Assembly (NCBI GenBank): GCA_018713505.1
Contig: DVOL01000005.1
Span: 1-52,709, forward strand
Direction: 5' to 3'
DNA length: 52,709 nucleotides
Source: Candidatus Faeciplasma avium
Lineage (GTDB): Bacteria; Bacillota; Clostridia; Oscillospirales; Ruminococcaceae
The notes under the pieces are model-generated. The model was given only the letters and a program-made list of their open reading frames with translations. It did no database searches and was not told the origin of the DNA. Every line of letters begins with the position of its first letter. The first letter of the stretch is position 1. This document shows, one piece after another, positions 24,188-51,371 of this stretch. Position numbers and translations under genes: made by a program.

Positions 24188-24190
24188 GCT

Positions 24191-31260: not shown

Positions 31261-31333
31261 TATAGATGAATTTGAAGCTGGCAATTTTTACTTTATAACC
31301 CTTTTTAGGGCGATACCAAGGCATGAGGCGGCT

Positions 31334-32365
31334 TTACTCCTTATTCTCAGGTCTTTCGGGAGACTTTAAGCTGTTATCCTGCCTAAAGACCCTTTTTATC
31401 ACCGCTTTTACGACTATCCATAGTATGAGGATGATGACAGCCGCTATTGCAAGATAGGGAAGTGCGCTTGCCGTGCCGACAAACAGGTTTACAAACCAGT
31501 CCCCGATGCTTGCAAGGTTGTAGCTGAGATTGGTTCCTATCCTCTCAAAGACTCCCGGCTGCTGTGCGGGCTTTGTGATTCTTTCCACCTCGGTTATGCT
31601 AAGGCTGAGGGTGCTGTAGCTTATCAGGCTGTCGTAGGATTTAAGCTGTGCCGTGAAGCTCTCTATCTGGTAGTTTACATTTGAGAGGTAGCTCTGGATG
31701 CTGAGAATCTCATCGACGGTCGTAGCCATCTCCATCAGCCTAAGATAGCTCTCCTGCTCCGCCTTAAGAGCTTTGAGCCTCGCCTCGAGGTCAATATAGC
31801 TAGCCGTCACATCGTCGATATACTCATAGGAATAGGTTACCGTCGCCATGTCGCCGATAAGCCCGGTGAACTCGTCAAACCTTTCTGCGGGAATCCTAAT
31901 GGTAAAGCGTGCGGAGCGGAGACTCGTGTCGTAGTAGGAGCTTCCGTTCTGCGTGGAGTCCTGGATATATCCGCCGTACTGCGAGACGAGCCCTGACAGC
32001 TCTGAGATGAGGCTGTCGTACTCTATCGTTTCTACGCTTAAATCCCTGTTTTTGATAAGCTTTCTCTGAGAAGCCTCTATGCCGTCGGCGTCGCTGGAGG
32101 CTGTGGGATTTTGCGGCTCGTAAAAGTCCTCGACGGCCTCCTCGGCAATCTCCCATTCGCCGGTTTCCCAGATGATTTCCTCATTTGGCGCAGCATCCGC
32201 CCCGGCGTCCCAGCCCAGTGCAGGGCTTTGGCTGGAGGAGGTAAGGCTCTGCGCCCCATCTTTTGCCGTGGAGCCGCAGCCGCAGAGAAGCACAGCCGCC
32301 GCAGTTATTAATATAACCGTAAGTCTTATTTTTGAAATTATGCTTAGCTTATTGGCCATTGCCAA
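31334..32365 (-). CDS. lipoprotein with coiled-coil and C-terminal TM helix (DUF4349-like)
   Basis: Lipobox LLCGC. Central block RKLIKNRDLSVETIEYDSLISEL...IQDS, a coiled-coil segment and a terminal helix LPYLAIAAVIILILWIVV, as I recall for DUF4349 proteins. Confidence 0.6.
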   Translation of the reverse strand: MAMANKLSIISKIRLTVILITAAAVLLCGCGSTAKDGAQSLTSSSQSPALGWDAGADAAPNEEIIWETGEWEIAEEAVEDFYEPQNPTASSDADGIEASQRKLIKNRDLSVETIEYDSLISELSGLVSQYGGYIQDSTQNGSSYYDTSLRSARFTIRIPAERFDEFTGLIGDMATVTYSYEYIDDVTASYIDLEARLKALKAEQESYLRLMEMATTVDEILSIQSYLSNVNYQIESFTAQLKSYDSLISYSTLSLSITEVERITKPAQQPGVFERIGTNLSYNLASIGDWFVNLFVGTASALPYLAIAAVIILILWIVVKAVIKRVFRQDNSLKSPERPENKE

Positions 32366-32520
32366 TCAACTCCCTTCTGCAAATAATACAAGTCTGCCGA
32401 GGTTAAAATTGCAGAATGGCTGGCGGCGGTCGGATTTTAGGGACATTGACCAATTTTCAGCCTTGAAAACTGTATATTTTATCATATGGCACAAATTTTG
32501 AATATTGCCTCCCGATATGC

Positions 32521-32549
32521 TTGACAGCTTGACCTTTTTAGTGTAAACT
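32521..32549 (+). promoter_or_regulatory. candidate rpoBC promoter
   Basis: TTGACA (32521-32526), a 17-nt spacer, then TAAACT (32544-32549). This leaves a ~190-nt leader. Confidence 0.45.
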
Positions 32550-32743
32550 TTTATTCTGTATCATAATGGCTAAGTAGACGCCTATTTTCAAAAAGCGGGT
32601 TTTACACTGGCGGATTTTAACGAACTTTTCATCTAAGTTTTCTGTAGTTTGCCGCATATCAAACAAAATATTAAAGTAGTAAAATTTCGCAGGCGGATAA
32701 TGGCCAGACTTTTTTGAATTAATTTAATAAGGAGTGAATAGCA

Positions 32744-36523
<3,780 letters not shown>

Positions 36524-36565
36524 GCCCGGCTTTGATTGATACTAATAGTAAAGAGGGGTTGAACT

Positions 36566-39500
36566 TTGGATTTTAATGTTTTTGATTCAATAAAAATCGG
36601 ACTTGCTTCTCCCGAGCAGATAAGAAGCTGGTCGCACGGAGCGGTCGAGAAGCCCGAAACCATCAACTACCGTACCCAGAAGCCGGAGAGGGATGGACTG
36701 TTCTGCGAAAGGATATTCGGTCCTACCAAGGATTGGGAGTGTCACTGCGGAAAGTATAAGAAGATTCGCTTCAAGGGAAAGGTCTGCGAGCGCTGCGGAG
36801 TCGAGGTCACAAGGGCTAAGGTAAGGCGTGAGAGGATGGGTCACATCGAGCTTGCCGCCCCCGTATCCCATATATGGTACTTCAAGGGCACTCCCTCGAG
36901 AATCGGTCAGATGCTCGAAATCTCCCAGAAGAGGCTGGAGGAGGTTTTGTACTTCACCAAGTACATCGTCACCGACCCGGGAGAAACCAGCCTTGAGAAG
37001 AAGCAGATACTCAACGAGAGGGAGTATCAGGACGCCAGGGAGCGCTTTGAGGACAAATTCAAGGCGGGAATGGGCGCAGAGGCAATCAAGGTTTTGCTTC
37101 AGGAGATAGATGTCGAGGCTCTTGCCGCCGAGCTTAAAAACGAGCTGAAGGACCTCCAGCAGGGTCAGAAGAGGATAAAGCTCTTAAAGAGGCTTGAAAT
37201 CGTAGAGGCATTCAGGCTGTCCGGCAATCGTCCCGAGTGGATGATTCTGGATGTAGTGCCGGTAATTCCTCCCGAGCTAAGGCCTATGGTCCCGCTGGAC
37301 GGCGGAAGGTACGCCACCTCCGACCTAAACGACCTCTACAGAAGGGTTATAAACAGAAACAACCGTCTAAAGAGGATGCTGGAGCTTGAGGCTCCCGATA
37401 TAATCGTAAGAAACGAGAAGAGAATGCTCCAGGAGGCTGTCGACGCCCTCATCGACAACGGAAGGCACGGCCGCCCGGTCGTAGGACCTAACAACAGGGC
37501 GTTCAAGTCGCTTTCGGACATGCTAAAGGGCAAGCAGGGAAGATTCCGTCAGAATCTTTTGGGAAAGAGAGTCGACTATTCGGGAAGGTCTGTTATAGTA
37601 GTAGGTCCCGAGCTGAAGATGTATCAGTGCGGTCTGCCCAAGGAGATGGCTTTAGAGCTGTTCAAGCCCTTTGTAATGAAGAGGCTTGTCGATACAAATC
37701 CTCAGATTAACATAAAGTCTGCCAGAAAGATGGTAGAAAGAGGCAAGGACGAGGTCTGGGACGCTCTTGAGAATGTAATTCAGGGACATCCCGTCCTATT
37801 AAACCGTGCTCCGACGCTCCACAGGCTAGGAATCCAGGCGTTTGAGCCGGTCCTGGTAGAGGGAAGGGCGCTCAAGCTCCATCCTCTTGCCTGTACCGCA
37901 TACAACGCCGACTTTGACGGCGACCAGATGTCGGTCCATGTTCCGCTCAGCGTAGAGGCTCAGGCGGAGGCAAGATTTTTGATGCTTGCCGCTAACAACC
38001 TCCTAAAGCCTGCCGACGGCAAGCCTGTAACCGTCCCCACTCAGGACATGGTGCTTGGCTCCTATTATCTGACCCTTGAAAAGGAGGGCGAAAAGGGAGA
38101 GGGCAAGGTCTTTAGGGATGTCAACGAGGCTATGATGGCTTATCAGGCGGGAGTAGTCTCGCTCCAGGCAAAGATAAAGGTAAGAGTCACCCGTGGCACG
38201 GGGGACAGAAACCTCTCCAAGATAATCGACGCCACCGTGGGAAGGCTTATCTTCAACGAGAACATCCCGCAGGACCTGGGCTTTGTCGACAGGACGGACT
38301 CCTCCAAGCAGTTTGACCTTGAGATAGGCTTCCTGGTCAAGAAGAAGCAGTTAGGAAATATAATCGAGAGGTGTATAAGAAAGCACGGCACCACAAAGAC
38401 CAGCGAGGTGCTGGACAGCATCAAGGCGCTGGGCTTTAAGTACTCCACCAAGGCTGCGATAACCGTTGCGGTCTGTGACGCCGAGGTTCCTCCCGAGAAG
38501 AAGGATATCCTTGCCAACGCTGACAGGCTTGTTGATATTGTCGACAGGCAGTACAAGAGGGGACTTATCTCCCGTGCAGAGAAGTCGAACAAGTTTATAG
38601 AAATCTGGAGAAAGGCTACCGACGATGTCACAACCGCTCTTCAGAACAATCTCGACAGGTACAATCCGATATACATGATGTCCGACTCGGGAGCAAGAGG
38701 CTCCATAGCCCAGATAAGACAGCTCGCCGGCATGAGAGGACTTATTGCTAACACCTCGGGCGCCACGATAGAGATGCCTATAAGGGCAAACTACCGTGAG
38801 GGTCTTAACATCCTTGAGTATTTCATATCCTCAAGAGGCGCAAGAAAGGGTCTTACCGACACCGCTCTTAGAACGGCGGACTCTGGATATCTGACAAGGC
38901 GACTTGTAGATGTCTCGCAGGATGTCATAATCACTGAGGAGGACTGTGGCACCCACGAGGGCATCGAGGTCTTTGAGATTAAAAACGGCAACGAGATGAT
39001 AGAGCCGTTTGCCGAGAGACTCATAGGAAGATTCCTTGTCGAGGATTTAAAGGACCCCGCAACCGGCGAGGTCGTCATGTCGCACGACAGGCTTATGACC
39101 GCTCAGGACTCCGAAAAGGTCATCGCCTTCCTAGAGAGCCATGGCAGGGACAGAATTGCTATTCGCTCCGTCTTAGGCTGCAAGTCAAAGAGGGGAGTCT
39201 GTGCAAAGTGCTACGGCATGGACCTTGCACATTCCACCGTCGTCTCGGTAGGCGAGGCTGTCGGAATCATCGCAGCCCAGTCTATAGGCGAGCCGGGTAC
39301 TCAGCTCACGATGAGAACCTTCCACACGGGAGGAGTCGCCTCGGCTGAGGATATCACTCATGGTCTGCCCAGAGTCGAGGAGCTGTTCGAGTCAAGAAAG
39401 CCCAAGGGCGCAGCCATACTTGCAAGAATCGGCGGCGTTGTCTCGATAGAGGAGATAAAGAAGTCAAGAGTCATAGTCATAACCAACACCGAGACGGGCG

Positions 39501-40147
39501 AGGTCGAGCAGTACGCCATTCCGTGGGACTACAGGATAAAGGTCAAGGAGGGCGACGAGGTCAAGGCAGGAGACGAGCTGACAGCCGGCTCCAAGAACCC
39601 AGCCGATGTCCTTGCAATACTCGGCCCCGAGGCGGTAAGAAACTATATCATCACCGAGGTCCAGAAGGTCTACAGGCTCCAGGGTGTTGATGTAAACGAC
39701 AAGCATATCGAGGTAATAACCCGCCAGATGCTCCGCAAGGTTAAGATTGAGGACTCCGGCTCCAGCTACCTGCTGCCCGGAACCCTTGTGGATAAGCATG
39801 AGATAGAGGAGATAAACGCCCAGATACAGCAGGAGATTGACTCCGGCGATGAGTCTGCAAGGCTCATTACCACCAGCCCGGTCATCCAGGGTATCACAAA
39901 GGCGTCCTCAAGCTCTGAGAGCTTCCTGTCCGCCGCCTCCTTCCAGGAGACTACAAGGGCGCTCACGGACGCTGCCATAAAGGGCAAGACAGACCATCTC
40001 CAGGGTCTAAAGGAGAATGTAATTATCGGTAAGCTGCTCCCTGCCGGAACAGGTATGGCTGTCTACAACAACGCCCAGGCGGTTAAGAACGAGAGCTACA
40101 TCGAGCACGCCGCAGCCGCTCACGAGGCGGCGCAGGACAACGCCTGA
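36566..40147 (+). CDS. rpoC: DNA-directed RNA polymerase subunit beta'
   Basis: Zn finger [20 protein letters not shown], catalytic NADFDGDQM, ~1190 aa. TTG start after AGAGGGG. Confidence 0.98.
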
Positions 40148-40182
40148 GGCTGTCCCCGCAAACTAATAGGCATATAAAGCTT

Positions 40183-40218
40183 CACCCTCCGTCAATGCTG
40201 GCGGAGGGTGATTTTTTA
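40183..40218 (+). terminator. rho-independent terminator after rpoC
   Basis: 9-bp stem caccctccg (40183-40191) / cggagggtg (40202-40210), followed by atttttt. Confidence 0.7.
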
Positions 40219-40241
40219 GGCTGGCTTTTTGCTTTAGAGCT

Positions 40242-41687
40242 TTATTTACTGCTAAACGGCGTCTGAAGCACCGAGACGGCGTCCTGAATGGTCTTTTCCA
40301 TAGCCTCACGGCCGTACTTGTCGACCTCGGCCTTGTTCTTCTCACCGTGGGTGAGACAGCCGGCGCCGCCTATGCAGCCGCCTACGCAGGCCATGCCCTC
40401 GATGAAGTTGGCGTCAAGAACATTCTTCTGCTTCTTTAGGAGTGCGATTCTGCACTGCTCGATGCCGTCGCAGGAGATTCCCTTGAGGGTAAAGTCGCCG
40501 TCAAGACCCTGCTCCTTTAGACCCTCGGCAACTGCGTCTGACAGTCCGCCGCAGCGAGCGAATATTCTTCCGAAGTAGCTTGCGTTGTCAAGAACGCCCT
40601 CCTCTAGGGTAGTGATGTCGATGTCCCTGGAGTCAAACAGAGCCTGAAGCTCCTCGAAGGTCAGCACCGAGTCGACATATGGCTTGACCTCCTCACGCTG
40701 GATTTCCATCTTCTTTGCGGTGCAGGGACCTATGAAGATTATCTTTGCGTTCTTGGTGGTCTGCTTGATGTATCTGGCAATTGTAGCCATCGGGGAGAGG
40801 TTGTGCGAGATGTACTGCTTTAGCTCGGGGAAGCTCTTTTCAATGTAGCTTACAAAGCCGGGGCAGCAGGAGCTTGTCAAGAAGCCCTTTTCGTAAAGCT
40901 CCTTTGATTCTGCCTGAGCCACCATGTCTGCTCCCAGAGCAGCCTCGACCACGGTATGGAAGCCGAGCTTTTTAAGACCCGTTACCACCTGACCGAGCTT
41001 GGCATAGGTAAACTGGCTGGAAATCGAGGGAGCTACAACGGCGTAGAGCTTGTAGTTTCTTCCCTGCTGGCTCTTTTTGAGCAGGTCGATTACATTTATC
41101 ATGTAGGACTTGTCCATTATAGCTCCGAACGGGCACTGATATACGCAGGCGCCGCAGGATATGCACTTAGAGTTGTCGATGGTGGCTGCCTTGTGCTCGT
41201 TCATTGATATCGCCTTTATCTTGCAGGCGTTCTGGCAGGGACGGACCCTTGAAACAATTGCGGTGTACGGGCAAACCTTAGAGCAGGCTCCGCACTCACG
41301 GCATTTGGACTTGTCGATATGTGCGACATGGTTTTCGTCGAAGGATATCGCTCCGAATCTGCAAACATCCTCGCACCTGTGGGCAAGACAGCCACGGCAG
41401 GCGTTTGTAACCTCATAGCCGCCGACAGGGCACTCGTCGCAGGCGATGTCTATTACCTCGATGACATTGGGGTTTTCCTTGTCTCCGCCCATCGCTATCT
41501 TGACTCTCTCCTCAAGTATAGCCCTCTCCTTGTACACGCAGCAGCGCATTGTGGGGGTGTTTCCCGGGACTATCATCTTGGGAATGTCAAGAATCTTGTC
41601 GTAGAGGGTGTCATTCCAGGAGAGCCTTGCGACCTCTCTTAGCACCTTGTATTTAAGGTGCTGGACCTTTGTATCGAATTTTCTCAT
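40242..41687 (-). CDS. [FeFe]-hydrogenase homologue with N-terminal multi-[4Fe-4S] domain (HfsD / HydA2-like)
   Basis: Fe-S motifs CRGCLAHRCEDVC, CRECGACSKVCP and CISCGACVYQCP. H-cluster motifs TSSCCPGF (P1), FIGPCTAKKME (P2) and EGMACVGGCIGGAGC (P3). GAGGTG SD. Confidence 0.85.
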   Translation of the reverse strand: MRKFDTKVQHLKYKVLREVARLSWNDTLYDKILDIPKMIVPGNTPTMRCCVYKERAILEERVKIAMGGDKENPNVIEVIDIACDECPVGGYEVTNACRGCLAHRCEDVCRFGAISFDENHVAHIDKSKCRECGACSKVCPYTAIVSRVRPCQNACKIKAISMNEHKAATIDNSKCISCGACVYQCPFGAIMDKSYMINVIDLLKKSQQGRNYKLYAVVAPSISSQFTYAKLGQVVTGLKKLGFHTVVEAALGADMVAQAESKELYEKGFLTSSCCPGFVSYIEKSFPELKQYISHNLSPMATIARYIKQTTKNAKIIFIGPCTAKKMEIQREEVKPYVDSVLTFEELQALFDSRDIDITTLEEGVLDNASYFGRIFARCGGLSDAVAEGLKEQGLDGDFTLKGISCDGIEQCRIALLKKQKNVLDANFIEGMACVGGCIGGAGCLTHGEKNKAEVDKYGREAMEKTIQDAVSVLQTPFSSK

Positions 41688-41718
41688 AGCGTTTCACCTC
41701 ATCCTTGGAATTTATGAA

Positions 41719-42891
41719 TCAGAAGTAGCTTACCTTGACCTTCTTGCCCATCCTCTGGAGGCACTTTGTCAGCTCCTCCACTAGATTCATCTTTATGCTG
41801 AAATTAATCGGCAGGTCGGGGTTCTGGTGAGCGGGATTGATCGCCCGTCCGACATAGAAGTTGATGTCGGTAGCCTCCTCGAACAAAAGCCGGCTTATGA
41901 GCGAGGCGCCGTCTCTTTTGTAGCTCCACTGCTCGTACGCCTCGTTGTTCTCAAGGTAATCCCTGGCGTACTCCAGCACCTTGTTTACTGTTATGACTCC
42001 CTCGGTTACAAGGTCAACGCCCTCAAGCTCTGCTATGGGAGGGACATCGGAGCGCTCAAAGTTGAGAGACGCCTTTAACGGCTTGCCGAGATACTTTGCG
42101 GCTATCGAGGAGGTTGTTCCGCCGCAGATTATGTGCTTTCCCTCCTTGGAGAAGAACAGCGACATCATCCTGTTGCAGTCGTCCCGATTTGAGGGAGGAC
42201 CGAACAGAAGGTTCATAGGCTCCCTCTTTCTGACCCTTACCACGCAGGCTGTGGCGTCGTCTCCCGGCTGGTTGCCGTAGAGCTTGTTGCACTCGTCCAC
42301 AAGCACGGTGGAGAGATTCTTGGCGGTGTAGCCCACCAGCGAAAGAGGCTCCAGGAAGCTGATTATATCCTCTCTTTTCCAGCCGAAGTTAAACGCCGTG
42401 CCTATTCCCGCATGAGGGCAGCCGTCGCTCATGGCGACGATAAAGTCGTTCTCGCAGAGCTTTACCGAGGACCTGAGTATCTTCTTCCCGCCGATGTTAA
42501 GCTCTGTGGTGGGATAGTCGTAGTTCTGACCGTCCCTGAGCATTATCACCTTGGGATTGTCGTACTGGATGATTTCGGCGGTTTCGTTGTTGCAAAGCCG
42601 GATTATCGTAAAGGTGGAGTACGCCACCCCTCTCACCGAGCAAATTGGCAGAGTTGCGGCTATAGTCTCTACGCAGTCCTCCAGCGAAAGACCCTCAGAC
42701 ATCATGGTGGAGATTATCTTCGAGGTCAGGGTGGAGAGAATGCTCGCCTTTACGCCGCTTCCCAGACCGTCGGCAAGCACTATTACGGTGGAGCTGTCGT
42801 CCTGCGAGACTATGTCGACATGGTCGCCGCAGAGCTGCTCGCCGTAGTGATTTATACTTTTATAGCCTATATCGGCGCAGAGGTCATTCAT
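41719..42891 (-). CDS. PP2C / SpoIIE-family protein phosphatase with uncharacterised C-terminal domain (HfsC-like)
   Basis: Metal-binding Asp motifs CGDHVD, LADGLGSG and MSDG. The ATG overlaps the hydS stop (ATGAATGA). Confidence 0.85.
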   Translation of the reverse strand: MNDLCADIGYKSINHYGEQLCGDHVDIVSQDDSSTVIVLADGLGSGVKASILSTLTSKIISTMMSEGLSLEDCVETIAATLPICSVRGVAYSTFTIIRLCNNETAEIIQYDNPKVIMLRDGQNYDYPTTELNIGGKKILRSSVKLCENDFIVAMSDGCPHAGIGTAFNFGWKREDIISFLEPLSLVGYTAKNLSTVLVDECNKLYGNQPGDDATACVVRVRKREPMNLLFGPPSNRDDCNRMMSLFFSKEGKHIICGGTTSSIAAKYLGKPLKASLNFERSDVPPIAELEGVDLVTEGVITVNKVLEYARDYLENNEAYEQWSYKRDGASLISRLLFEEATDINFYVGRAINPAHQNPDLPINFSIKMNLVEELTKCLQRMGKKVKVSYF

Positions 42892-44569
42892 TGCTTATGC
42901 TCTCCTTAAGCTTGGCAAGCGCAATCTTAGTTTCGGCGGCAGTCTCGCCTAGAAGCGAGGCTATCTCCTGAACTATACGCATCTGCTTGTCTACCACCTT
43001 GTCCGCAATCTCGACGGTCTGGCGGCTTATGCTCTCCTTCTTTTCACGCTCGGTCTCCTCGTCGGTGACATCACGCATAATGCATATCAAGAGGTGGTAC
43101 TCCGAGTCGTGGATAATGGTCTGCTCGATGTATTTTTTGTACTCGGCGAGATATACTCTCTCGTTTTTGATGTTCCTGCCGGACTTCAAAACCTCCATGA
43201 ACGGCTTGGGGTCGAGGATTCTTATGACCTGGTCCCCAAGGACATCGCTTGCCTGGCGGATGTTCATAATCCTTCTTGCGGTGTTGTTTATCTGCTGGAC
43301 CTCAAGGCTCTCGTTTAGAAGTATGATGCCGTTGGGAGAGTTTGAAACTATGTTGTCTGAGAAGCTCTCCGCCTTGTCCTTCAGGAAGGGCAGGCACATC
43401 GAGATGTCCGCCTTGCCCTGATAGATGGCGATTGCCTTCTCACGGCAGGTATTGTAGCCGCAGGAGCCGCAGTTAAGCTCGTCTGACGGACGGAACTTGC
43501 CCATCTGGCGGAGAATCGACATTATCTCGGACTCCGAGGGAGTGCTGGAGCCGGTGTCTATCGGCATGAAAGCCTTTCTTATCTCGCCGGAGGACATATT
43601 CTCGACCTCGAAATCTAGCCTTCCAGCAAAGGAGGATACTGCTGAGTAGTCCTTGACGGGGGAGCGGTGGTACTTTTCCATTACCGGCCCGCCAACGCAG
43701 CTTCCCACGCAGGAGGACATCTCGATAAAGCAGTTATGTATGCTTCCGTTTTCGATATCCCTCAGGGCGGCCATGCAGTTTTCAACGCCGTCTATGGCGA
43801 GGTAGGTGTACCTTGAGGAGGTCTCCTCCATGGTTTCCTTCATCGTTTTAAGGATTCCCCCGGTGGTGGGGAAGAATCTTGCACGGCTGTGCTCCTCGTG
43901 GTCTATCTCGTTTTCAAGGGCTATACCCTCGGCGTTCAGCCAGCCGGTAAGCTCCTCGAAGGTAAGAACAGCGTCGACTATTCCGGGATACTTTCCAGCC
44001 TCGTCCTTTTTGGCTACGCAGGGACCTATAAACACCGTCTTGGCGTTGGGATACCGCTTTTTTATGTCGGTGCAGTGAGCCTGCATCGGGGAGAGGACAT
44101 CGGCAAGATAGCAAAGAAGGTTCGGAAAATACTTCTGGATAAGAAGATTTACCGAGTGACAGCAGGAGGAGATTATAATATCCCTGCTTTCCTCCTTTAT
44201 AAGCCTCTCATACTCCGACTTTACCATCGAGGCGCCGACGGCGGTCTCCTCGACATCATAAAAGCCCAGCTTTTTAAGAGCCTGCCTCATCTGGCTGATT
44301 CCTGCGCCGTAGTTTGCGACGAAGGAGGGAGCCAGGCTGACAATGACCGGGTCGCCGCCCTGGAGCAGAACCTTTACCTTCTCCGTCTCGTCGACTATCT
44401 CCTTGGCGTTCTGCGGACATACGACAAAGCACTGTCCGCACAGGATGCACTCGTCCTCGATTATATGCGCCTGATTCCCGGAGAATCTAATCGACTTCAC
44501 CGGGCAGTGGCGGATGCACTTATAGCAGTTTTTGCAGTTTGATTTTTTCAGGGTCAGACATTTGCCCAT
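42884..44569 (-). CDS. hydS: putative sensory [FeFe]-hydrogenase homologue with C-terminal 4-Cys and PAS domains (HydS / HfsB-like)
   Basis: CKNCYKCIRHCP and CILCGQCFVVCP (two [4Fe-4S] motifs). Variant H-cluster motifs ISSCCHS, FIGPCVAKKDE and EMSSCVGSCVGGP. Then CGSCGYNTC...C, a PAS-like segment (SNSPNGIILLNESLEVQQINNTARRIM...) and a coiled-coil tail. Confidence 0.85.
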   Translation of the reverse strand: MGKCLTLKKSNCKNCYKCIRHCPVKSIRFSGNQAHIIEDECILCGQCFVVCPQNAKEIVDETEKVKVLLQGGDPVIVSLAPSFVANYGAGISQMRQALKKLGFYDVEETAVGASMVKSEYERLIKEESRDIIISSCCHSVNLLIQKYFPNLLCYLADVLSPMQAHCTDIKKRYPNAKTVFIGPCVAKKDEAGKYPGIVDAVLTFEELTGWLNAEGIALENEIDHEEHSRARFFPTTGGILKTMKETMEETSSRYTYLAIDGVENCMAALRDIENGSIHNCFIEMSSCVGSCVGGPVMEKYHRSPVKDYSAVSSFAGRLDFEVENMSSGEIRKAFMPIDTGSSTPSESEIMSILRQMGKFRPSDELNCGSCGYNTCREKAIAIYQGKADISMCLPFLKDKAESFSDNIVSNSPNGIILLNESLEVQQINNTARRIMNIRQASDVLGDQVIRILDPKPFMEVLKSGRNIKNERVYLAEYKKYIEQTIIHDSEYHLLICIMRDVTDEETEREKKESISRQTVEIADKVVDKQMRIVQEIASLLGETAAETKIALAKLKESISNE

Positions 44570-44572
44570 TTG

Positions 44573-44833
44573 CTACACTCCTCCGGCTTTGATAGGTTTA
44601 AGTATTTTTTCGTTGAAAAATTCCTTGAAGCTCTCCTTGGTCACTCCGCTTATTACCTCGTCGTCTACCGTGACGGTCACGCCGAAGCGGTTGCACATGC
44701 CGGTGCAGAAGCTTCCGGCAAGAGTGACATCGTTTTCAAGGTGGTGCTCCTCGACAGCCTCCTGCAAAAGCCTGACTATCTCCTCGGAGCCTTTGAGATG
44801 GCAGGAGCTGCCAACGCATATCTGTACAATCAC
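44573..44833 (-). CDS. thioredoxin-like [2Fe-2S] ferredoxin-domain protein (NuoE/HfsA-like), copy 2
   Basis: 86 aa with Cys pattern C6-x4-C11...C43-x3-C47 (VGSSCHLKG ... FCTGMC). GTG start after GGAG. The stop lies 3 nt before the hydS ATG. Confidence 0.8.
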   Translation of the reverse strand: MIVQICVGSSCHLKGSEEIVRLLQEAVEEHHLENDVTLAGSFCTGMCNRFGVTVTVDDEVISGVTKESFKEFFNEKILKPIKAGGV

Positions 44834-44935
44834 TTATATCACTCCATTAATGCTTGGTCGTCTAAAATCGGAGCAAGGCGTGATATGAACTATCCCGCCT
44901 GCGTCAGGTTATTGGCATAAAGCCGAGCCAAGGGG

Positions 44936-45196
44936 CTACTCCCCGTCATCCTCGGGAGGGAGCTTAGCTAATATCTCACGGTTGAAGAAATCCTCTACTG
45001 TCTCCGGGCTGACGGAGAAGAAGCTGTCGTCCACGGTGACGCAGACTCCCTTCTGGCACTGTCCCATGCAGAAGGTGCCGCCAAGCTCCACCCTGTCGCC
45101 AAGACCGTTGTCCTGAATGAGCCTTTGGAGCGAGCCTACGACCTGCCTGGAGCCTTTGATATGGCAGGAGCTGCCTATGCATACTGTAACATTCAT
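44936..45196 (-). CDS. thioredoxin-like [2Fe-2S] ferredoxin-domain protein (NuoE/HfsA-like), copy 1
   Basis: 86 aa with the same four-Cys pattern (IGSSCHIKG ... FCMGQC). Paralogue of the adjacent gene. Confidence 0.8.
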   Translation of the reverse strand: MNVTVCIGSSCHIKGSRQVVGSLQRLIQDNGLGDRVELGGTFCMGQCQKGVCVTVDDSFFSVSPETVEDFFNREILAKLPPEDDGE

Positions 45197-45336
45197 ATGT
45201 ATATCCTCTCTTTAAAGCGACCGGCGGGAAAGCTCTTTATTTTCAAGGAGCCTGCCTGCCGGTCGGTCATATCCTGCCTGCGGGGTGCCGGGAGAGAAGG
45301 AGCGCCCAGCCTCCTGACACCCCGGTCAGCGCCGGC

Positions 45337-46086
45337 TTATTCGTAATCTACAACATCTACCCAGGAGAGAAGGAATTCCCTTTCCTCCTTGTTGCCCTTA
45401 ACCGACTGCGAGGCGGCTACAATGGGCATCCACTTCTGGACATACTGCTTTGCAGTGTCGCTCTTGCGGCAGAACATATCAAGATACTTTGCCGCAAGCT
45501 CGGTGTTTCCCGAGAGGCAGAAAAGAAGGTATGTCCTGGCGGCGTCTGCGGAGGCGTTTCCCTGAGTGGCGTGCGCCCAGTCAAGGACATAGAGCCTGCC
45601 GTCCCCGGTGACGATTATGTTGGAGGGGTTAAAGTCGCCGTGGCAGAGCTTTTTGTGCTTGGGCATAGCCTCAAGACGGGTTCTTAGGTCGTATCTTGTG
45701 GTAGCGTCAAGCTCAGCCTCGCCGATTTTGCGGTTCATCTTGTCCCTTAGCTTGTTGAGGTTCTGGCAGGTGTGGGACTGGACCTCTATCTGCAAATCGA
45801 CGAACATCTCGAGGTACTTGTCGATATTGTCGGGGTCCTCCTCCATGATGGAGGCGAGGGTCTTGCCCTCTATGTACTCGGTGACTATCGCCCACTTGCC
45901 GTCTACCTTGCAGACCTCGATAACCTTGGGGATATTAAGACCTGTCTCCTCGACTCTGGCGGTGTTAAGAGCCTCGTTTAGGATGTCGGCCTTGGAGAAG
46001 CTCTCGTCGAATACCTTAATGCAAAGGTCGCCGTCACGGTAGAGCGTCTTAGAATTCCTGACTGCAATAACTCTGTCTAGATTCAT
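45337..46086 (-). CDS. protein-kinase-like-fold phosphotransferase (APH / choline-kinase family), putative protein kinase
   Basis: N-lobe Lys in LCIKVFDE, catalytic loop CHGDFNPSNII, metal-binding YVLDWAHA. AGGAGGA sits 7 nt upstream of ATG 46086, inside the 15-nt gap after adhE. Confidence 0.75.
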   Translation of the reverse strand: MNLDRVIAVRNSKTLYRDGDLCIKVFDESFSKADILNEALNTARVEETGLNIPKVIEVCKVDGKWAIVTEYIEGKTLASIMEEDPDNIDKYLEMFVDLQIEVQSHTCQNLNKLRDKMNRKIGEAELDATTRYDLRTRLEAMPKHKKLCHGDFNPSNIIVTGDGRLYVLDWAHATQGNASADAARTYLLFCLSGNTELAAKYLDMFCRKSDTAKQYVQKWMPIVAASQSVKGNKEEREFLLSWVDVVDYE

Positions 46087-46101
46087 CACTTTATCCTCCT
46101 A

Positions 46102-48807
46102 TTACTTGGTTTTCTTGCCCTTCTTGGCGTATATCTGCTTGCTGGCGTCAGCGCCCGAGCTTTCAAAGTCGTGTATCTGGTCGGGCATCTTCTTCTCCTC
46201 GAAGTGCTTGCCGTAGTAGGCGTTGAGGTACATGCTCTTTATCTCGCTGATAAGAGGATATCTCGGGTTAGCGCCTGTGCACTGGTCGTCAAACGCCTGC
46301 TCGGTCATAGCGTCAAGCCTGTCAAGGAAGTCCTTTTCGTCGATGCCGTAGTCCTTGATGGTCGGCTTGATTCCGACTCTTGCCTTTAGCTCGTTGATTG
46401 CCGCTATGAGGTTTTCAAGCTTCTCCTCGTCGGTGCTTCCGCCAAGACCCAAAGCGTCTGCAATCTCGGCGTACCTTGCCAGGGTGTGAGGATGGTCGTA
46501 CTGCGAGAAGGTGCCCATCTTAACGGGAGACTCGCAGGCGTTGAATCTCAGGACCTCCTCAATCATGAGGGCGTTGGCTACGCCGTGTGCGATGTGGTGG
46601 AAGGCGCCCAGCTTGTGAGCCATCGAGTGGCAGACGCCCAGGAAGGCGTTTGCAAACGCCATACCTGCCATTGTAGCGGCGTTAGCCATCTTCTCACGGG
46701 CGATAACATCGGTCTGTCCGTTGTCATAGGCTGAGGGCAGGTACTTGAATATGGTCTTTAGAGCCTGGATTGCAAGACCGTCGGTGTAGTCTGTAGCCAT
46801 TACGGAGGCGTATGCCTCAAGAGCATGGGTTACAGCGTCGATACCCGAGGCGGCAGTAAGTCCCTTGGGAGCGGACATATGGAAGTCGGTGTCGATAATA
46901 GCCATGTTGGGAAGGAGCTGATAGTCTGCAAGAGGATACTTTATGCCGCTGTCCTGGTCGGTGATGACGGCAAAGGGAGTGACCTCAGAGCCTGTACCGG
47001 CAGAGGTGGGTATTGCTATGAAGTAAGCCTTCTCTCCCATCTTGGGGAAGGTGTAAACCCTCTTTCTGATGTCGATAAAGCGCATAGCCATATCCATGAA
47101 GTCGACCTCGGGATGCTCATAAAGCACCCACATAATCTTTGCAGCGTCCATGGCGGAGCCGCCGCCGAGTGCGATTATGCAGTCCGGCTTGAAGGAGGAC
47201 ATCTGCTTTGCTCCTGCCTGTGCGGAGGCAAGGGTGGGGTCCGGCTCGACATCGAAGAAGGTGGTGTGAGCGATTCCAAGCTGGTCAAGCTTGTCGGTTA
47301 TCGGCTTGGTGTAGCCGTTGTGATACAGGAAGCTGTCGGTTACTACGAAGCAGCGCTGCTTGTTCATCACCGATTTAAGCTCGTCAAGAGCGACGGGAAG
47401 GCAGCCCTTCTTGATGTATACCTTCTCCGGGGCACGGAACCAAAGCATATTTTCTCTCCTCTCAGCGACTGTCTTGATGTTGATAAGGTGCTTTACTCCT
47501 ACATTCTCGGAGACCGAGTTTCCTCCCCAGGAGCCGCAGCCCAGAGTGAGGGAGGGAAGGAGCTTGAAGTTGTACAAATCGCCGATTCCGCCGTGAGAGG
47601 AGGGAGTGTTGACAAGAACACGGCAGGTCTTCATCCTCGCCTGGAACCTCTCAAGCTTGTCCTGAGCGGTGAGGGTGTTCAGGTAGATGGAGGAGGTGTG
47701 TCCGTAGCCGCCGTCTGCAACCAGCTGCTCAGCCTTTGCAAGGGCGTCGTCAAAGCTCTTTGCGTGATACATGGCAAGAACGGGGGAGAGCTTCTCGTGA
47801 GCGAACTCCTCGGAGATGTCGACCGACTCGACCTCGCCTATAAGTATCTTGGTGCCCTCAGGAACGCTTACGCCGGAGAGCTGCGCTATCTTTGCGGCAG
47901 GCTGACCGACTATCTTTGCATTGAGGGAGCCGTTTATGATTATCGTCTTTCTTACCTTGTCAAGCTCGTCGGGAGCTAGGAAGTAGCAGCCTCTGTAGGC
48001 AAACTCCCTCTTGGCTGCGGCATATACGCTGTCAAGAACTATGCAGGACTGCTCCGAGGCGCATATCATGCCGTTGTCGAAGGTCTTGGAGTGGATTATG
48101 GAGTTTACAGCCAGGATTATGTCTGCGCTGTCGTCTATAATTGCGGGAGTGTTTCCTGCGCCGACTCCAAGAGCAGGCTTTCCTGAGGAGTAAGCAGCCT
48201 TTACCATTCCGGGACCGCCGGTAGCCAAAATAGTGTCAGCCTCCTTCATAAGAAGGTTGGTCATCTCAAGGGAGGGGATGTCTATCCACTCGATTATGCC
48301 CTCTGGAGCGCCCGCCTTCACGGCAGCCTCTAGGACTATCTTGGCAGCCTCGATGGTGCAGCCCTTGGCTCTCGGGTGGGGGCTTATGATGATGGCGTTT
48401 CTAGTCTTGAGGGCGATAAGGCACTTGAATATGGCGGTAGAGGTCGGGTTGGTGGTGGGTATTACCGCCGCTATGACGCCTATAGGCTCGGCGACCTTCT
48501 TGATGCCGTACTCCTTGTCCTCCTCGATGACTCCGCAGGTCTTGGTGTTCTTGTAGGCGTTGTAGATGTACTCGGAGGCATAATTGTTCTTTATGACCTT
48601 GTCCTCCACTACGCCCATGCCGGTTTCCTCGACCGCCATCTTAGCAAGGGGAAGCCTTTGCTTGTTTGCGGCTGAAGCGGCGGCAAAGAATATCCTGTCG
48701 ACCTGCTCCTGGGTAAAGCTGGCAAACTTTTCCTGTGCCTTGCGCACCGAGGCGATAACCTCCTCAAGACGCTCAACACTGTCTACGATTCTGCGTTCGT
48801 TGTTCAT
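46102..48807 (-). CDS. adhE: bifunctional acetaldehyde-CoA / alcohol dehydrogenase
   Basis: 901 aa: N-terminal aldehyde dehydrogenase half (catalytic-Cys region FDNGMICASEQS) plus C-terminal iron-type ADH half (LGGGSAMDAAK, His-rich metal site CHSMAHKLG). Confidence 0.96.
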   Translation of the reverse strand: MNNERRIVDSVERLEEVIASVRKAQEKFASFTQEQVDRIFFAAASAANKQRLPLAKMAVEETGMGVVEDKVIKNNYASEYIYNAYKNTKTCGVIEEDKEYGIKKVAEPIGVIAAVIPTTNPTSTAIFKCLIALKTRNAIIISPHPRAKGCTIEAAKIVLEAAVKAGAPEGIIEWIDIPSLEMTNLLMKEADTILATGGPGMVKAAYSSGKPALGVGAGNTPAIIDDSADIILAVNSIIHSKTFDNGMICASEQSCIVLDSVYAAAKREFAYRGCYFLAPDELDKVRKTIIINGSLNAKIVGQPAAKIAQLSGVSVPEGTKILIGEVESVDISEEFAHEKLSPVLAMYHAKSFDDALAKAEQLVADGGYGHTSSIYLNTLTAQDKLERFQARMKTCRVLVNTPSSHGGIGDLYNFKLLPSLTLGCGSWGGNSVSENVGVKHLINIKTVAERRENMLWFRAPEKVYIKKGCLPVALDELKSVMNKQRCFVVTDSFLYHNGYTKPITDKLDQLGIAHTTFFDVEPDPTLASAQAGAKQMSSFKPDCIIALGGGSAMDAAKIMWVLYEHPEVDFMDMAMRFIDIRKRVYTFPKMGEKAYFIAIPTSAGTGSEVTPFAVITDQDSGIKYPLADYQLLPNMAIIDTDFHMSAPKGLTAASGIDAVTHALEAYASVMATDYTDGLAIQALKTIFKYLPSAYDNGQTDVIAREKMANAATMAGMAFANAFLGVCHSMAHKLGAFHHIAHGVANALMIEEVLRFNACESPVKMGTFSQYDHPHTLARYAEIADALGLGGSTDEEKLENLIAAINELKARVGIKPTIKDYGIDEKDFLDRLDAMTEQAFDDQCTGANPRYPLISEIKSMYLNAYYGKHFEEKKMPDQIHDFESSGADASKQIYAKKGKKTK

Positions 48808-48849
48808 CTTATGACCATTCCTTTCTTTGATGAAGGTATTACTGACCGT

Positions 48850-49455
48850 TTAATCCTGCCTGCAAAGATGTGCCAGGGAAAGTGCGAGGTCCTCATACCT
48901 CACCGAGACATTCTTAGGCACCCTGAGCCTGCAGGGAGCAAAGCACCATATCGCAGTTATCCCGCACTTTATCAGCAGGGAGGCAACCTCCTGCGCAGAC
49001 TCCTTCGGGACGGTGATTATCCCTATCCTTATATCCTCCAGCGTGCAGATATTCTGCAGGGAATCCATAGAGTATATCGGCTTTCCGGAGGAGGAGGAGG
49101 TCTGCCACAGCCCGGCGTCCCTGTCAAAGGCGGCTGCGATTTCGATGCCGTATTCAGAAAAGCCGGAGTAGTCAAGAAGAGCCCGTCCTAGCTTTCCTGC
49201 GCCGACAAGCACAGCTTTTTTTATGTTCCCCGAGCCAAGGCAATGCTCGATGCTGGAAATAAGCTCGCTCGTGACATAGCCGACCCTGGGTCTGCCCTCG
49301 CCGCTGACTGCGCCGAGGTCCTTTCTGACCTGAACCTCGCCGAAGCCCAAAGCCCTCGATATCGAGGTTGCCGAGACAGTTTCCGATTCAAGCTGCTTCA
49401 GATAGCCTAGATACGCTGGCAGACGGCCCAGCGTCGCCTTCGGGACCATGCTCAT
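48850..49455 (-). CDS. rex: redox-sensing transcriptional repressor Rex
   Basis: Winged helix VPKATLGRLPAYLGYL and Rossmann motif LVGAGKLGRAL. Start taken at ATG 49455 (or 49449) because the promoter's predicted TSS falls inside the longer track ORF. Confidence 0.88.
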   Translation of the reverse strand: MSMVPKATLGRLPAYLGYLKQLESETVSATSISRALGFGEVQVRKDLGAVSGEGRPRVGYVTSELISSIEHCLGSGNIKKAVLVGAGKLGRALLDYSGFSEYGIEIAAAFDRDAGLWQTSSSSGKPIYSMDSLQNICTLEDIRIGIITVPKESAQEVASLLIKCGITAIWCFAPCRLRVPKNVSVRYEDLALSLAHLCRQD

Positions 49456-49492
49456 CGCTAATGCACTTCTCCTGTTTTCTTTTCTTAATGAC

Positions 49493-49521
49493 ATGATAGC
49501 ATATTTTTTTGGGGATTTCAA
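49493..49521 (-). promoter_or_regulatory. rex-adhE promoter
   Basis: The minus strand reads TTGAAA (49516-49521), a 17-nt spacer, then TATCAT (49493-49498). Confidence 0.5.
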
Positions 49522-49554
49522 TAGGCTTTAATAGATTTTTACATCTTCTACGAT

Positions 49555-49573
49555 TCGATAATATATTTATCGA
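49555..49573. promoter_or_regulatory. inverted repeat upstream of the rex promoter (candidate operator)
   Basis: TCGATAA-tatat-TTATCGA, with perfect 7-bp arms. Confidence 0.35.
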
Positions 49574-49686
49574 TAATGCTATTAGCTATTGAGCAGTATC
49601 ACCAAACCGACCATGCCGCAGGGTCACGGCGGGAGTAAAAAAAGAAGCTTATCAGCCTCTTCCCTGATATGCTCATATGCTAAATC

Positions 49687-49719
49687 AAAAAAATGTGCCC
49701 CGGCTTTCGTCGGGACACA
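49687..49719 (-). terminator. rho-independent terminator after the ferredoxin gene
   Basis: The minus strand reads ugugucccg-acgaaagc-cggggcaca (one G-U pair), followed by uuuuuuu. Confidence 0.65.
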
Positions 49720-49820
49720 TAAAACCTATCGGTTTTAAAACCTTGCGGTTTTCTTGGGGAGCGTCTGCCCCCCCTTTTTTTGAATGTACTCAGCCTAGGA
49801 TGGCTGACCCGGTTTCGGGA

Positions 49821-49991
49821 TTACTCCTCAACGGGCGCTCCTACAGGGCAGACTGCGGCGCAGTTTCCGCAGCCTATGCAGGTCTCGGCGTCGATAACGA
49901 ACTTATCCTCGCCCTCGGTGATAGCGTTTACGGGGCACTCGGATGCACATGTACCGCAGTTGATGCACTCATCGGTAATCTTGTAAGCCAT
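49821..49991 (-). CDS. fdx: clostridial-type 2x[4Fe-4S] ferredoxin (56 aa, absent from the ORF track)
   Basis: AAGGAGG-N8-ATG. Product MAYKITDECINCGTCASECPVNAITEGEDKFVIDAETCIGCGNCAAVCPVGAPVEE with two CxxCxxCxxxCP motifs. TAA at 49821-49823. Confidence 0.9.
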   Translation of the reverse strand: MAYKITDECINCGTCASECPVNAITEGEDKFVIDAETCIGCGNCAAVCPVGAPVEE

Positions 49992-50086
49992 AGTGGTGAA
50001 TCCTCCTTTAAAATAGTTGGGTGAGGTAGCTTAGAGGCTGCTCCCTGGAAATCCGGGAGGGGCCGCTCCTGTCCTCCCATGAATAC

Positions 50087-50114
50087 ATAATAGCATATAT
50101 TTTAAAAAATGCAA
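50087..50114 (-). promoter_or_regulatory. ferredoxin promoter
   Basis: The minus strand reads TTGCAT (50109-50114), a 16-nt spacer ending TGC, then TATTAT (50087-50092). Confidence 0.45.
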
Positions 50115-50147
50115 GTGTATTTTGACACGGTCTGCAATAATTTTAGC

Positions 50148-50176
50148 TTGAAAAAGCGGATTGGATATGCTACAAT
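50148..50176 (+). promoter_or_regulatory. promoter of the SEDS-family gene
   Basis: TTGAAA (50148-50153), a 17-nt spacer, then TACAAT (50171-50176). Confidence 0.5.
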
Positions 50177-50192
50177 CATCTAAAGAATTCTT

Positions 50193-51371
50193 TTGACTGG
50201 AGTGAGGACGCTGCTGGGTGCTGTTGTTAAGAGGGCGCTTGCGTATATTAAGAGGCTGGACAAGCTGCTTTTGCTGCTTGCCGGCTGCTGCAGTGCGATA
50301 GGGATAACGCTCATATACTCGCTTGTGATAAACAGCAGGTCGCAGAGGATAACCGACGCCGCCGTCGACTCGCAGACGGTCAAGGTCCAGCTTATAGCCG
50401 CTCTTGTCGGGCTATTTCTGGCGCTTATCATCGCCGTGTTTGACTACAGATGGTTTTCAAGGCTCTGGTTTTTGTACCTCCCGGCGGCGCTCGGGCTGAC
50501 GCTTCTTACCTTTACGGGGCTGGGGATCTCCGGGCTGGAGGGCGCAGACGACCGTGCGTGGATAGACCTCGGCTTCATTACCGTCCAGCCGGCGGAGTTT
50601 TTAAAGCTGGCATATATCCTCTCACTGTCGTACCACTGCTTTAGGACAAAGGAGTTTTTCAACAATCCCCTAAACATACTCGCCCTGCTTGTCCACGGAG
50701 GGCTTCCGGCTGCTCTTGTAATGCTCCAGGGGGACGACGGCACAGCGATGGTATTTATAATCATATTCCTGGCGATAGTCTTTGCGGCAGGGCTTTCCTG
50801 GAAGTATATCCTCGGTGCGGCGGCTTTGGCTCCCGCAGTGTTCTGGCTCCTGTGGACATATTACCTCCAGCCGGTGCACAAAAACAGGATACTAAGCGTG
50901 ATATTCCCCGAAAAATACTCAAACGCCGACCTGCTTTACCAGACCAGCCGCTCGCTTATCGCCCTAGGCTCGGGACAGCTTGAGGGCAAGGGGCTTTTCG
51001 GAGGGGATTACACCTATGTCCCGGTCTGCCACAGCGACTTTATATTCTCCTACGCCGGGCAGACGCTTGGCTTTATCGGCTGTCTGGCTATCGTTTTGCT
51101 GATTACGCTTTTCTGCCTCAGGCTTTTGCTCAGCGGCATGAGGAGTCAGGACGAGCTTGGAAGGTATATCCTAGTCGGGATATTCTCCTACTTTTTAACC
51201 CACTCGGTCTTAAATATCGGGATGGTGACCGGCATCACCCCGGTAATAGGCATCCCGCTGCCCTTTTTCTCTGCGGGAGGCACGGCTATGCTATCCTCCT
51301 GGCTGGCGGTGGGGCTTGCGCTGTCGGTGTATTATCATCATCAAAGATTTGACACAATCTTCAAAAATTAA
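50193..51371 (+). CDS. FtsW/RodA/SpoVE (SEDS) family peptidoglycan glycosyltransferase
   Basis: ~10 TM helices and conserved blocks (GDDGTAMVF, SDFIFSYAGQ, PLPFFSAGGTAM). The start is uncertain: TTG 50193 or GTG 50202. Confidence 0.88.
   Translation: MTGVRTLLGAVVKRALAYIKRLDKLLLLLAGCCSAIGITLIYSLVINSRSQRITDAAVDSQTVKVQLIAALVGLFLALIIAVFDYRWFSRLWFLYLPAALGLTLLTFTGLGISGLEGADDRAWIDLGFITVQPAEFLKLAYILSLSYHCFRTKEFFNNPLNILALLVHGGLPAALVMLQGDDGTAMVFIIIFLAIVFAAGLSWKYILGAAALAPAVFWLLWTYYLQPVHKNRILSVIFPEKYSNADLLYQTSRSLIALGSGQLEGKGLFGGDYTYVPVCHSDFIFSYAGQTLGFIGCLAIVLLITLFCLRLLLSGMRSQDELGRYILVGIFSYFLTHSVLNIGMVTGITPVIGIPLPFFSAGGTAMLSSWLAVGLALSVYYHHQRFDTIFKN

Follow-up and report, generated by a model that had tools for sequence, protein, structure and literature searches.

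We report that a 52,709-nucleotide stretch of the Candidatus Faeciplasma avium genome (GenBank assembly GCA_018713505.1, contig DVOL01000005.1, positions 1 to 52,709; hereafter the window) carries on its minus strand an eight-gene cluster comprising rex, adhE, a kinase-like gene, two genes for small [2Fe-2S] proteins, hydS, a protein phosphatase 2C (PP2C) gene and a group B [FeFe]-hydrogenase gene. We interpret this cluster as a chromosomal orthologue of the rex-adhE-kinase-2Fe2S-2Fe2S-hydS-PP2C-hydA2 cluster of Ruminococcus albus, and as a fermentation module for high-H2 conditions that is equipped with its own regulators. We assign this interpretation as a whole a probability of roughly 60%. 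That the cluster belongs to the known R. albus type of system is close to certain, and the signalling chain that we propose for it below stands at about even odds.

The evidence for the identity of the cluster comes from a direct comparison with R. albus. A tblastn search of plasmid records with HydS recovered the Ruminococcus albus 7 plasmid pRUMAL01 at 72% identity, and the corresponding region (RUMAL_RS17350-17385) contains all eight genes, identically ordered, on one strand and with the same domain architectures. They are annotated there as Rex, AdhE, a phosphotransferase, two (2Fe-2S) ferredoxin-domain proteins, a HydS-type protein, a SpoIIE phosphatase and a 478-amino-acid hydrogenase. 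Identities by tblastn between the window and R. albus are 57% for rex, 75% for adhE, 70% for the kinase, 70% and 65% for the [2Fe-2S] proteins, 72% for HydS, 78% for PP2C and 77% for the hydrogenase. Because the eight genes, their order and their proteins all match, we regard the window cluster as an orthologue of the system already described; an 8-nt overlap of hydS and the PP2C gene, a group B hydrogenase and a dyad upstream of rex are also common to both. In R. albus, RNA sequencing (RNA-seq) showed that expression of this "putative eight-gene cluster" fell 111-fold when Wolinella, an H2 consumer, was grown alongside (Greening et al. 2019, PMC6776011), and the authors proposed that the group C hydrogenase, together with its phosphatase subunit, senses H2 directly (PMC6776011). 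According to the summary given in PMC5707799, Zheng et al. (2014) proposed a chain from HydS through PAS to a Ser/Thr kinase. An earlier reading of this DNA, the original prediction, had mentioned a related neighbourhood in R. albus 7. Such a neighbourhood does exist, but the description understated the case, as the eight genes and their order are the same and had already been published.

The open reading frame (ORF) list, translations, and Pfam and NCBIfam scans place nine minus-strand ORFs in this region, the eight consecutive genes of the cluster and a ferredoxin gene, fdx, with the families that had been predicted (Table 1). The junctions quoted earlier are likewise all correct in the sequence: 42 nt between rex and adhE, 15 nt with AGGAGGA between adhE and the kinase gene, 3 nt between the second [2Fe-2S] gene and hydS, the 8-nt overlap of hydS and the PP2C gene (ATGAATGA), and 31 nt with GAGGTG between the PP2C and hydrogenase genes. 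The accompanying claim of operon-like spacing holds for these junctions, but not for two longer spacers that had gone unmentioned, namely 140 nt between the kinase gene and the first [2Fe-2S] gene and 102 nt between the two [2Fe-2S] genes. Median gaps at these positions in relatives are 17 nt and 3 nt, and gaps as long as those of the window occur at only 2 of 53 and 2 of 73 loci, respectively. Since gaps in relatives are tight throughout, with medians of 3-18 nt at the other junctions as well, both spacers are unusual. The 140-nt spacer contains neither a T-run nor a promoter-like site, and may serve in processing, stabilisation or attenuation. Copies of the two spacers were found neither in the rest of the window nor in 82 related loci, and we therefore rejected the idea that they represent a repeat element. 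The closest relative (L003) has spacers that are longer still, 453 and 436 nt, at different junctions. A scan of positions 39900-50400 against Rfam, with E-values up to 1, found no RNA family, and a scan of the window found no promoter-like or terminator-like sites between the cluster genes on the minus strand.

Table 1. Genes and sequence features of the cluster and its borders (window coordinates)
Feature	Position	Strand	Evidence and remarks
Bidirectional terminator hairpin	40182..40211	.	13-bp stem; separates hydrogenase gene from convergent rpoC and closes the cluster
Group B monomeric [FeFe]-hydrogenase, 481 aa	40242..41687	-	TIGR04105, 574 bits (cut-off 450)
SpoIIE/RsbU-type PP2C phosphatase, 390 aa	41719..42891	-	Pfam SpoIIE, 51 bits
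HydS/HfsB-type putative sensory [FeFe]-hydrogenase, 561 aa	42884..44569	-	Pfam Fer4, Fe_hyd_lg_C, FeS, weak PAS
Thioredoxin-like [2Fe-2S] ferredoxin 2, 86 aa	44573..44833	-	GTG start; Pfam 2Fe-2S_thioredx, 36 bits
Second long spacer, between the [2Fe-2S] genes	44834-44935		102 nt
Thioredoxin-like [2Fe-2S] ferredoxin 1, 86 aa	44936..45196	-	Pfam 2Fe-2S_thioredx, 28 bits (cut-off 24.8); Cys6, Cys11, Cys43, Cys47
Atypical 140-nt spacer	45197..45336	-	Two stable hairpins, -62.5 kcal/mol, z -2.88
APH/RIO-fold phosphotransferase ("kinase" of the published model), 249 aa	45337..46086 (or 46089)	-	Pfam APH, 65 bits
adhE, bifunctional acetaldehyde-CoA/alcohol dehydrogenase, 901 aa	46102..48807	-	NF010378, 1396 bits (cut-off 951)
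rex, redox-sensing repressor, 201 aa from ATG	48850..49455	-	Mechanical ORF extends to 49521; NF003994, 229 bits (cut-off 130)
Cluster promoter, sigma-70-type	49493..49521	-	TTGAAA, 17 nt, TATCAT; TG before -10; 10/12 matches
Dyad TCGATAA-N5-TTATCGA, candidate operator	49555..49588	.	Upstream of rex promoter
fdx intrinsic terminator	49693..49720	-	10-bp stem, then TTTTTTT
Ferredoxin gene fdx, 2x[4Fe-4S], 56 aa	49821..49991	-	NCBIfam FdxA_fam, 93 bits (cut-off 65)
fdx promoter	TTGCAT 50114-50109, TGnTATTAT 50092-50087	-	Sequence read

To place the cluster among its relatives, an alignment of the PP2C protein was scanned against one genome per species, and the window proteins were then mapped onto 82 loci. 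A PP2C relative is encoded in at least 588 species-level genomes, and the unit is found widely among gut Oscillospiraceae and allied families. In the best 80 loci among these, PP2C is 81-90% identical to that of the window, and the closest named relatives among the matches listed are Candidatus Faeciplasma species (88%). Across the 82 loci, the invariant core is 2Fe2S-2Fe2S-hydS-PP2C-hydrogenase, and both [2Fe-2S] genes are found in nearly all relatives. Among loci with an intact 5' side, about 20 have adhE and the kinase gene ahead of the core, 11 (R. albus included) have all eight genes in the order rex-adhE-kinase-core, which is also the form seen in the window, 6 have the kinase gene and core, and 2 have rex, the kinase gene and core. 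About 54 loci have the kinase gene immediately ahead of the core, and no locus has adhE without a kinase gene. The 2Fe2S-HydS-PP2C-hydrogenase core can thus be extended by the kinase gene, adhE and rex, all three of which are optional. The inference that the genes form one physical unit is supported by synteny in R. albus 7, C. (Acetivibrio) thermocellum and many gut metagenome-assembled genomes. With the same order in dozens of species and an invariant hydS/PP2C overlap, the arrangement is far beyond chance.

The central protein of the core, HydS, has the features of a sensor. Its domain order is 2x[4Fe-4S], H-domain, a Cx2Cx4Cx16C motif, PAS and a C-terminal helical tail. Residues were numbered by alignment to CpI, and conservation was examined in 75 orthologues. 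The four cysteine ligands of the H-cluster are retained, the motifs SSCCH, GPC and CxGxC are invariant in the 75 sequences, and Fe_hyd_lg_C matches with 176 bits. The pocket is of the sensory type: M353G and M497S, the replacements described for Thermotoga maritima HydS (PMC8163306), are invariant in the 75 orthologues, as are the further substitutions S319A and E282R, and R286 is absent. The equivalent of Pro301 is an invariant His. Equally invariant are the motif C367-x2-C370-x4-C375-x16-C392 (Pfam FeS, 42 bits), the helical tail and the PAS domain between them, whose match in the window protein, 20.7 bits, is slightly below the cut-off of 22.6 (PAS_9, 19.6 bits). These features fit HydDB group C3, defined as "phosphatase-linked (putative)", and judged by them HydS is a sensory-type group C homologue rather than a group A enzyme. 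The last gene encodes an orthologue of R. albus HydA2 (577 bits on TIGR04105) and of Thermoanaerobacterium HfsD, with the motifs TSSCCP, GPC (GPCTAKK) and MACxGGC (EGMACxGGC) intact and invariant. The original prediction had left the class of the two hydrogenase homologues to be checked; with HydS of the sensory group C type and the last enzyme in group B, they are not both of group A.

The partner of HydS is a PP2C phosphatase that is translationally coupled to it through the 8-nt overlap. This overlap is identical in 74 of 74 loci, which argues for synthesis in a fixed ratio and for a complex. The AlphaFold2 model of PP2C (predicted local distance difference test (pLDDT) 88, predicted template modelling score 0.85) has two parts. 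Residues 1-222 adopt the SpoIIE/RsbU fold (Foldseek match to 5mqh, E 8e-15) and keep the metal-binding Asp residues. Residues ~224-390 (window 41722-42222) form a separate alpha/beta domain that matches or exceeds the catalytic domain in conservation, carries the motifs CGGTTS, EGVDLVTEGVIT and NPAHQNP, and gives a pLDDT of 91.5 when modelled alone. This C-terminal domain has no Pfam match at E-values up to 1, and its sequence yields only a faint match to a SIS-like protein in the PDB (E 0.36). Foldseek returns only generic flavodoxin-like or Rossmann-like folds for it (best E 0.018, template modelling score 0.40). The modelled fold does not look STAS-like, and a STAS identity was rejected.

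Whether the kinase-like protein opposes this phosphatase is less clear from its sequence. Both APH (65 bits) and RIO1 (35 bits) exceed their Pfam cut-offs, whereas Pkinase reaches 22 bits against a cut-off of 31.7, so that no match above threshold places the protein among Hanks-type kinases. Comparison with relatives shows a conserved Lys24 and the catalytic motifs HGDFNPSN and LDW, and the best relative in the PDB is a choline kinase (E 2e-5). Protein-kinase activity is plausible on these grounds. The earlier notion of a kinase/phosphatase pair acting on one substrate is best described as an assumption, given that the "kinase" has an APH/RIO fold and falls below the Pkinase threshold. The accompanying statement that the phospho-substrate had not been established agrees with the literature that we searched, in which no paper assigns a phospho-substrate to a HydS-PP2C system.

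The DNA upstream of the cluster offers several clues to its regulation. The start of rex is most likely the ATG at 49455, because the alternative TTG at 49521 forms the -35 hexamer of the TTGAAA-17-TATCAT promoter. The protein that begins there has the expected winged-helix and Rossmann domains (Pfam Put_DNA-bind_N and CoA_binding) and a conserved GAGKLG motif. The candidate operator upstream of this promoter consists of a perfect dyad at 49555-49573 and an overlapping second copy at 49570-49588, 15 bp out of phase. In R. albus 7 and 10 of 14 rex-first relatives, the same dyad precedes the rex start by 91-140 nt, the distance being about 100-117 nt in most rex-first operons, and it is often doubled with the 15-bp phase; besides the window, the loci that carry it are L001 (4281-4299), L009, L010, L013, L027, L030, L041, L042, L051, L074 and L081. 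Other copies with at most one mismatch are rare in 1.24 Mb of loci. One such copy, at 24789-24807, lies within an ABC-transporter ORF, and we therefore dismissed it as a chance occurrence.

The canonical Rex operator, TTGTTAA-N4-TTAACAA or TTGTGAA-N4-TTCACAA, has a different distribution. With at most two mismatches, it is present in 17 of 23 adhE-first loci (for example L064, L066, L073 and L079), where it precedes adhE by 57-108 nt and overlaps the -10 element (an example reads TTGTTAAAATATTAACAA), but in just one of the 14 rex-first loci; as background, 0.55% of random pieces of the same length contain such a site. Rex boxes thus occur where rex lies outside the operon, and their position over the promoter in those 17 loci identifies the unit as a Rex target. 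At three adhE-first loci, the sequence TCGATAA-ATAG-TTATCGA stands at the Rex-box position with Rex-box geometry, and TCGATAA may for this reason be a variant Rex half-site. The location of the dyad upstream of the -35 hexamer also fits a binding site for a LysR-type regulator. In 33 of the 82 loci, mostly those with a kinase, adhE or rex extension, the gene immediately upstream is of the LysR type (Pfam HTH_1) and lies on the same strand (examples are L001 3273-4205, L011 3207-4145 and L004 5970-7034). A tblastn search of the window with 29 LysR sequences from related loci gave no match. The claim that no STAS, anti-sigma or DNA-binding partner apart from Rex is encoded here stands for the window, but does not extend to the 33 relatives with a LysR-type neighbour.

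From the gene identities, order, coupling, sensory pocket and conservation that we observe, we infer every step of the following signalling scheme, which is the reading with the best support and agrees with the one already in the literature. AdhE would dispose of NADH as ethanol, the group B hydrogenase would draw on ferredoxin, and both would be made together with their own regulators. H2 would bind to HydS at a slow H-cluster of the sensor type. The accessory Cx2Cx4Cx16C cluster and then PAS would relay the resulting redox change to PP2C, which is made in a constant ratio to HydS; both small [2Fe-2S] proteins are possible redox partners in this step. PP2C would set the phosphorylation of a target, and the APH/RIO-fold kinase, in clusters that have one, would work against it. 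The output would raise the expression or the activity of AdhE and the hydrogenase, or both, at high H2, with Rex adding a gate that responds to the NADH/NAD+ ratio.

Several observations weigh against this scheme. At the sensor, all 75 orthologues retain the equivalents of Glu279 and Cys299 (HydS residues 119 and 136-137), although sensory hydrogenases of class M2f are described as lacking the proton-relay Cys299 (PMC8163306); because both residues are retained, residual catalysis by HydS is possible. At the level of the switch, the kinase-like protein cannot be demonstrated to be a protein kinase from a Pkinase score below threshold and a choline kinase as relative, and about 13 complete loci consist of the core alone, with no kinase. 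Furthermore, a search of the [2Fe-2S] proteins, HydS, PP2C and the hydrogenase for Ser or Thr residues that track the presence of the kinase found none, although this is a weak test that is confounded by relatedness. In the literature searched, H2 binding, phosphatase activity and kinase activity have been measured for no C3 system. With respect to transcription, no canonical Rex box lies near the window cluster at up to three mismatches, the best sites upstream of rex or fdx having five, which is background level, and rex expression in Thermoanaerobacterium changes the opposite way from what a simple Rex model would give. Finally, the two long spacers, one of them with stable hairpins, may split the window cluster into sub-transcripts.

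The main rival to this scheme is a model in which control is centred on the core and is post-translational. The five core genes would be the functional unit, in which HydS and PP2C adjust how active the adjacent hydrogenase is or how it is supplied with electrons, for instance by way of the [2Fe-2S] proteins or of that hydrogenase. The kinase gene, adhE and rex would be cargo that certain lineages have added and co-express, and transcription would be governed separately by Rex, a LysR-type regulator or both. We consider this model rather unlikely, but it has the most in its favour of any alternative. The core is invariant and the other genes are optional, and the 13 or so core-only loci have neither a kinase nor a regulator nearby. 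The sensor-PP2C pair always lies beside a hydrogenase, whether of group B or, in C. thermocellum, of the trimeric group A type. In T. thermosaccharolyticum, deletion of hfsABCD with hfsD added back copies the phenotype of an hfsB deletion, which indicates that HfsB acts through HfsD. In addition, adhE transcript levels do not explain the changes in enzyme activity reported in the hfs literature, and Rex boxes and LysR genes can explain transcription without HydS. However, the search for Ser and Thr residues, weak as it is, found no phospho-acceptor in the core proteins. Moreover, the whole R. albus cluster is very strongly regulated at the transcript level, and deletion of hfsA or hfsB raises adhE transcripts two- to three-fold.

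A second alternative, which we judge improbable, is that the "kinase" phosphorylates small molecules as a member of the APH/choline-kinase family, or is an atypical ATPase, and that its role is metabolic and linked to the operon. The PP2C target would then be phosphorylated by a kinase encoded elsewhere. Besides the Pfam scores and the choline-kinase relative, the absence of the glycine-rich loop of Hanks kinases and the ability of core-only loci to do without the gene are consistent with this idea. It is less easily reconciled with the tight and consistent placement of the gene immediately before the sensor core, in C. thermocellum as well as at about 54 loci and with proteins that are 50-90% identical, with the additional matches to RIO1 and Bud32 profiles, which represent atypical protein kinases, or with an HxDxxPxN catalytic loop like those of protein kinases. 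A purely coincidental run of unrelated, independently transcribed genes on one strand, for which only the 140-nt and 102-nt internal spacers (one strongly structured) and the separate fdx unit next door could be cited, is effectively refuted by synteny, as dozens of species from two families share the gene order, the gaps have medians of 3-18 nt, published work shows joint regulation in R. albus, and promoter-like and terminator-like sites are absent between the genes on the minus strand.

If the signalling scheme that we favour is correct, the question arises of how its output reaches the promoter. One proposal, which we offer tentatively and regard as doubtful, is that the output of the HydS-PP2C-kinase switch is marked by the upstream LysR-type regulator and the TCGATAA-N5-TTATCGA dyad. 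Phosphorylation would control either the LysR-type protein or a fast-evolving Rex that recognises TCGATAA, and the C-terminal domain of PP2C, 165 residues long, would serve as the docking or receiver surface. In the literature searched, no paper links a LysR-type regulator to HydS, and neither this regulator nor the dyad had been tied there to the HydS-PP2C-kinase switch.

The surroundings of the cluster are those of an ordinary chromosome. As had been noted earlier, a separately terminated ferredoxin gene lies directly upstream. This gene, fdx, is its own transcription unit, with its own promoter and a hairpin and T-run terminator at 49720-49693, and its association with the cluster is not kept in relatives. 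The extended -10 regions of the fdx and rex promoters are nearly alike (AATATGCTATTATGT and AATATGCTATCATGT; window 50087-50114 and 49493-49521). Beyond fdx are rodA and a galactokinase-like gene. On the other side (21929-27662 and 29160-40147) are genes for a MarR-type regulator and two ABC exporters, a 4-alpha-glucanotransferase gene, recG, rpoB and rpoC. We considered the ORFs at 21929-26149 as a possible bifurcating HydABC hydrogenase and rejected this, as they encode the MarR-type regulator and the two ABC exporters. Neither a bifurcating hydrogenase nor maturase genes are present in the window.

How fermenting gut and rumen bacteria choose between H2 and ethanol bears on methane emission, cross-feeding in the gut and biofuel yields, and the HydS/HfsB sensor is the leading candidate for making this decision. 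The window locus itself is no new kind of system. The original prediction had presented it as a compact model, a view that we do not share: novelty and model value are low because the R. albus cluster is already published with RNA-seq data on its H2-dependent joint regulation, and R. albus 7, which can be cultured, and C. thermocellum, which is genetically tractable, are better experimental hosts. What our survey adds is a distinction between the sensor-phosphatase-hydrogenase core, which does not vary, and modules that are optional, namely the kinase gene, adhE and rex, together with a set of testable candidates for the output, namely the LysR-type regulator, the conserved dyad and the uncharacterised C-terminal domain of PP2C.

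Several known systems help to place the cluster. Partner switching by SpoIIE/RsbU, RsbV and RsbW resembles it in the PP2C fold and in the coupling of the phosphatase to a sensory input, although neither the window nor the surroundings of the 82 loci encode a STAS substrate, a HATPase anti-sigma kinase or a sigma factor. The [NiFe] system HoxBC with HoxJ/HoxA of Ralstonia eutropha follows a similar logic, as a weakly catalytic hydrogenase homologue with a PAS-type link controls genes of hydrogen metabolism. It differs in having an unrelated metal site and family, in using a histidine kinase and response regulator rather than PP2C and an APH-fold kinase, and in that its output regulator is known. 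Among [FeFe] homologues, HydDB group C3 and T. maritima HydS (M2f) share with the window HydS the domain order, Gly353 and Ser497, and an adjacent Ser/Thr phosphatase gene; a difference is that the 75 orthologues retain the equivalents of Cys299 and Glu279, whereas M2f is described as lacking that Cys. In Acetoanaerobium noterae (L083, 6992-8698), a HydS homologue of 37% identity has a PAS domain and no adjacent PP2C, with HD-GYP-like genes nearby on the opposite strand. We rejected this locus as a distant source of PP2C for lack of that neighbour, and it may represent a different output for a group C sensor.

The closest comparisons are with R. albus itself and with Thermoanaerobacterium and C. 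thermocellum. The window cluster is chromosomal, beside rpoB and rpoC, whereas that of R. albus lies on a 420-kb megaplasmid; directly upstream of rex is a ferredoxin gene in the window and a LysR-type gene in R. albus; and gaps of 5-17 nt in R. albus stand where the window has 140 and 102 nt. Joint transcription in response to H2 is published for R. albus only, and the window cluster is known from its sequence. In Thermoanaerobacterium, unlike in the window, adhE and rex lie elsewhere in the genome, and the genetics of hfs tie the sensor to the balance of ethanol and H2, deletion of hfsB shifting flux to ethanol in five thermophiles. The literature drawn on in the original prediction for PAS-containing group C sensors, for hfsB and for the R. 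albus neighbourhood was represented correctly. A PP2C of 389-390 amino acids following a PAS-bearing HydS/HfsB is common to the window, to Thermoanaerobacterium hfsABCD and to C. thermocellum, whose PP2C is the HfsC of the hfs literature. In C. thermocellum (L084, CP013828.1, 1996-13498), the order is rex-adhE-kinase-2Fe2S-HydS-PP2C, followed by a trimeric NuoE/NuoF/HydA hydrogenase and another [2Fe-2S] gene of 81 amino acids; identities to the window are 61% for PP2C, 69% for the kinase, 80% for adhE and 52% for rex. This cluster differs from that of the window in having one small [2Fe-2S] gene ahead of the sensor and a trimeric hydrogenase (group A type) in place of the group B enzyme. Because the same sensor module here precedes a trimeric hydrogenase, it is portable between hydrogenase types.

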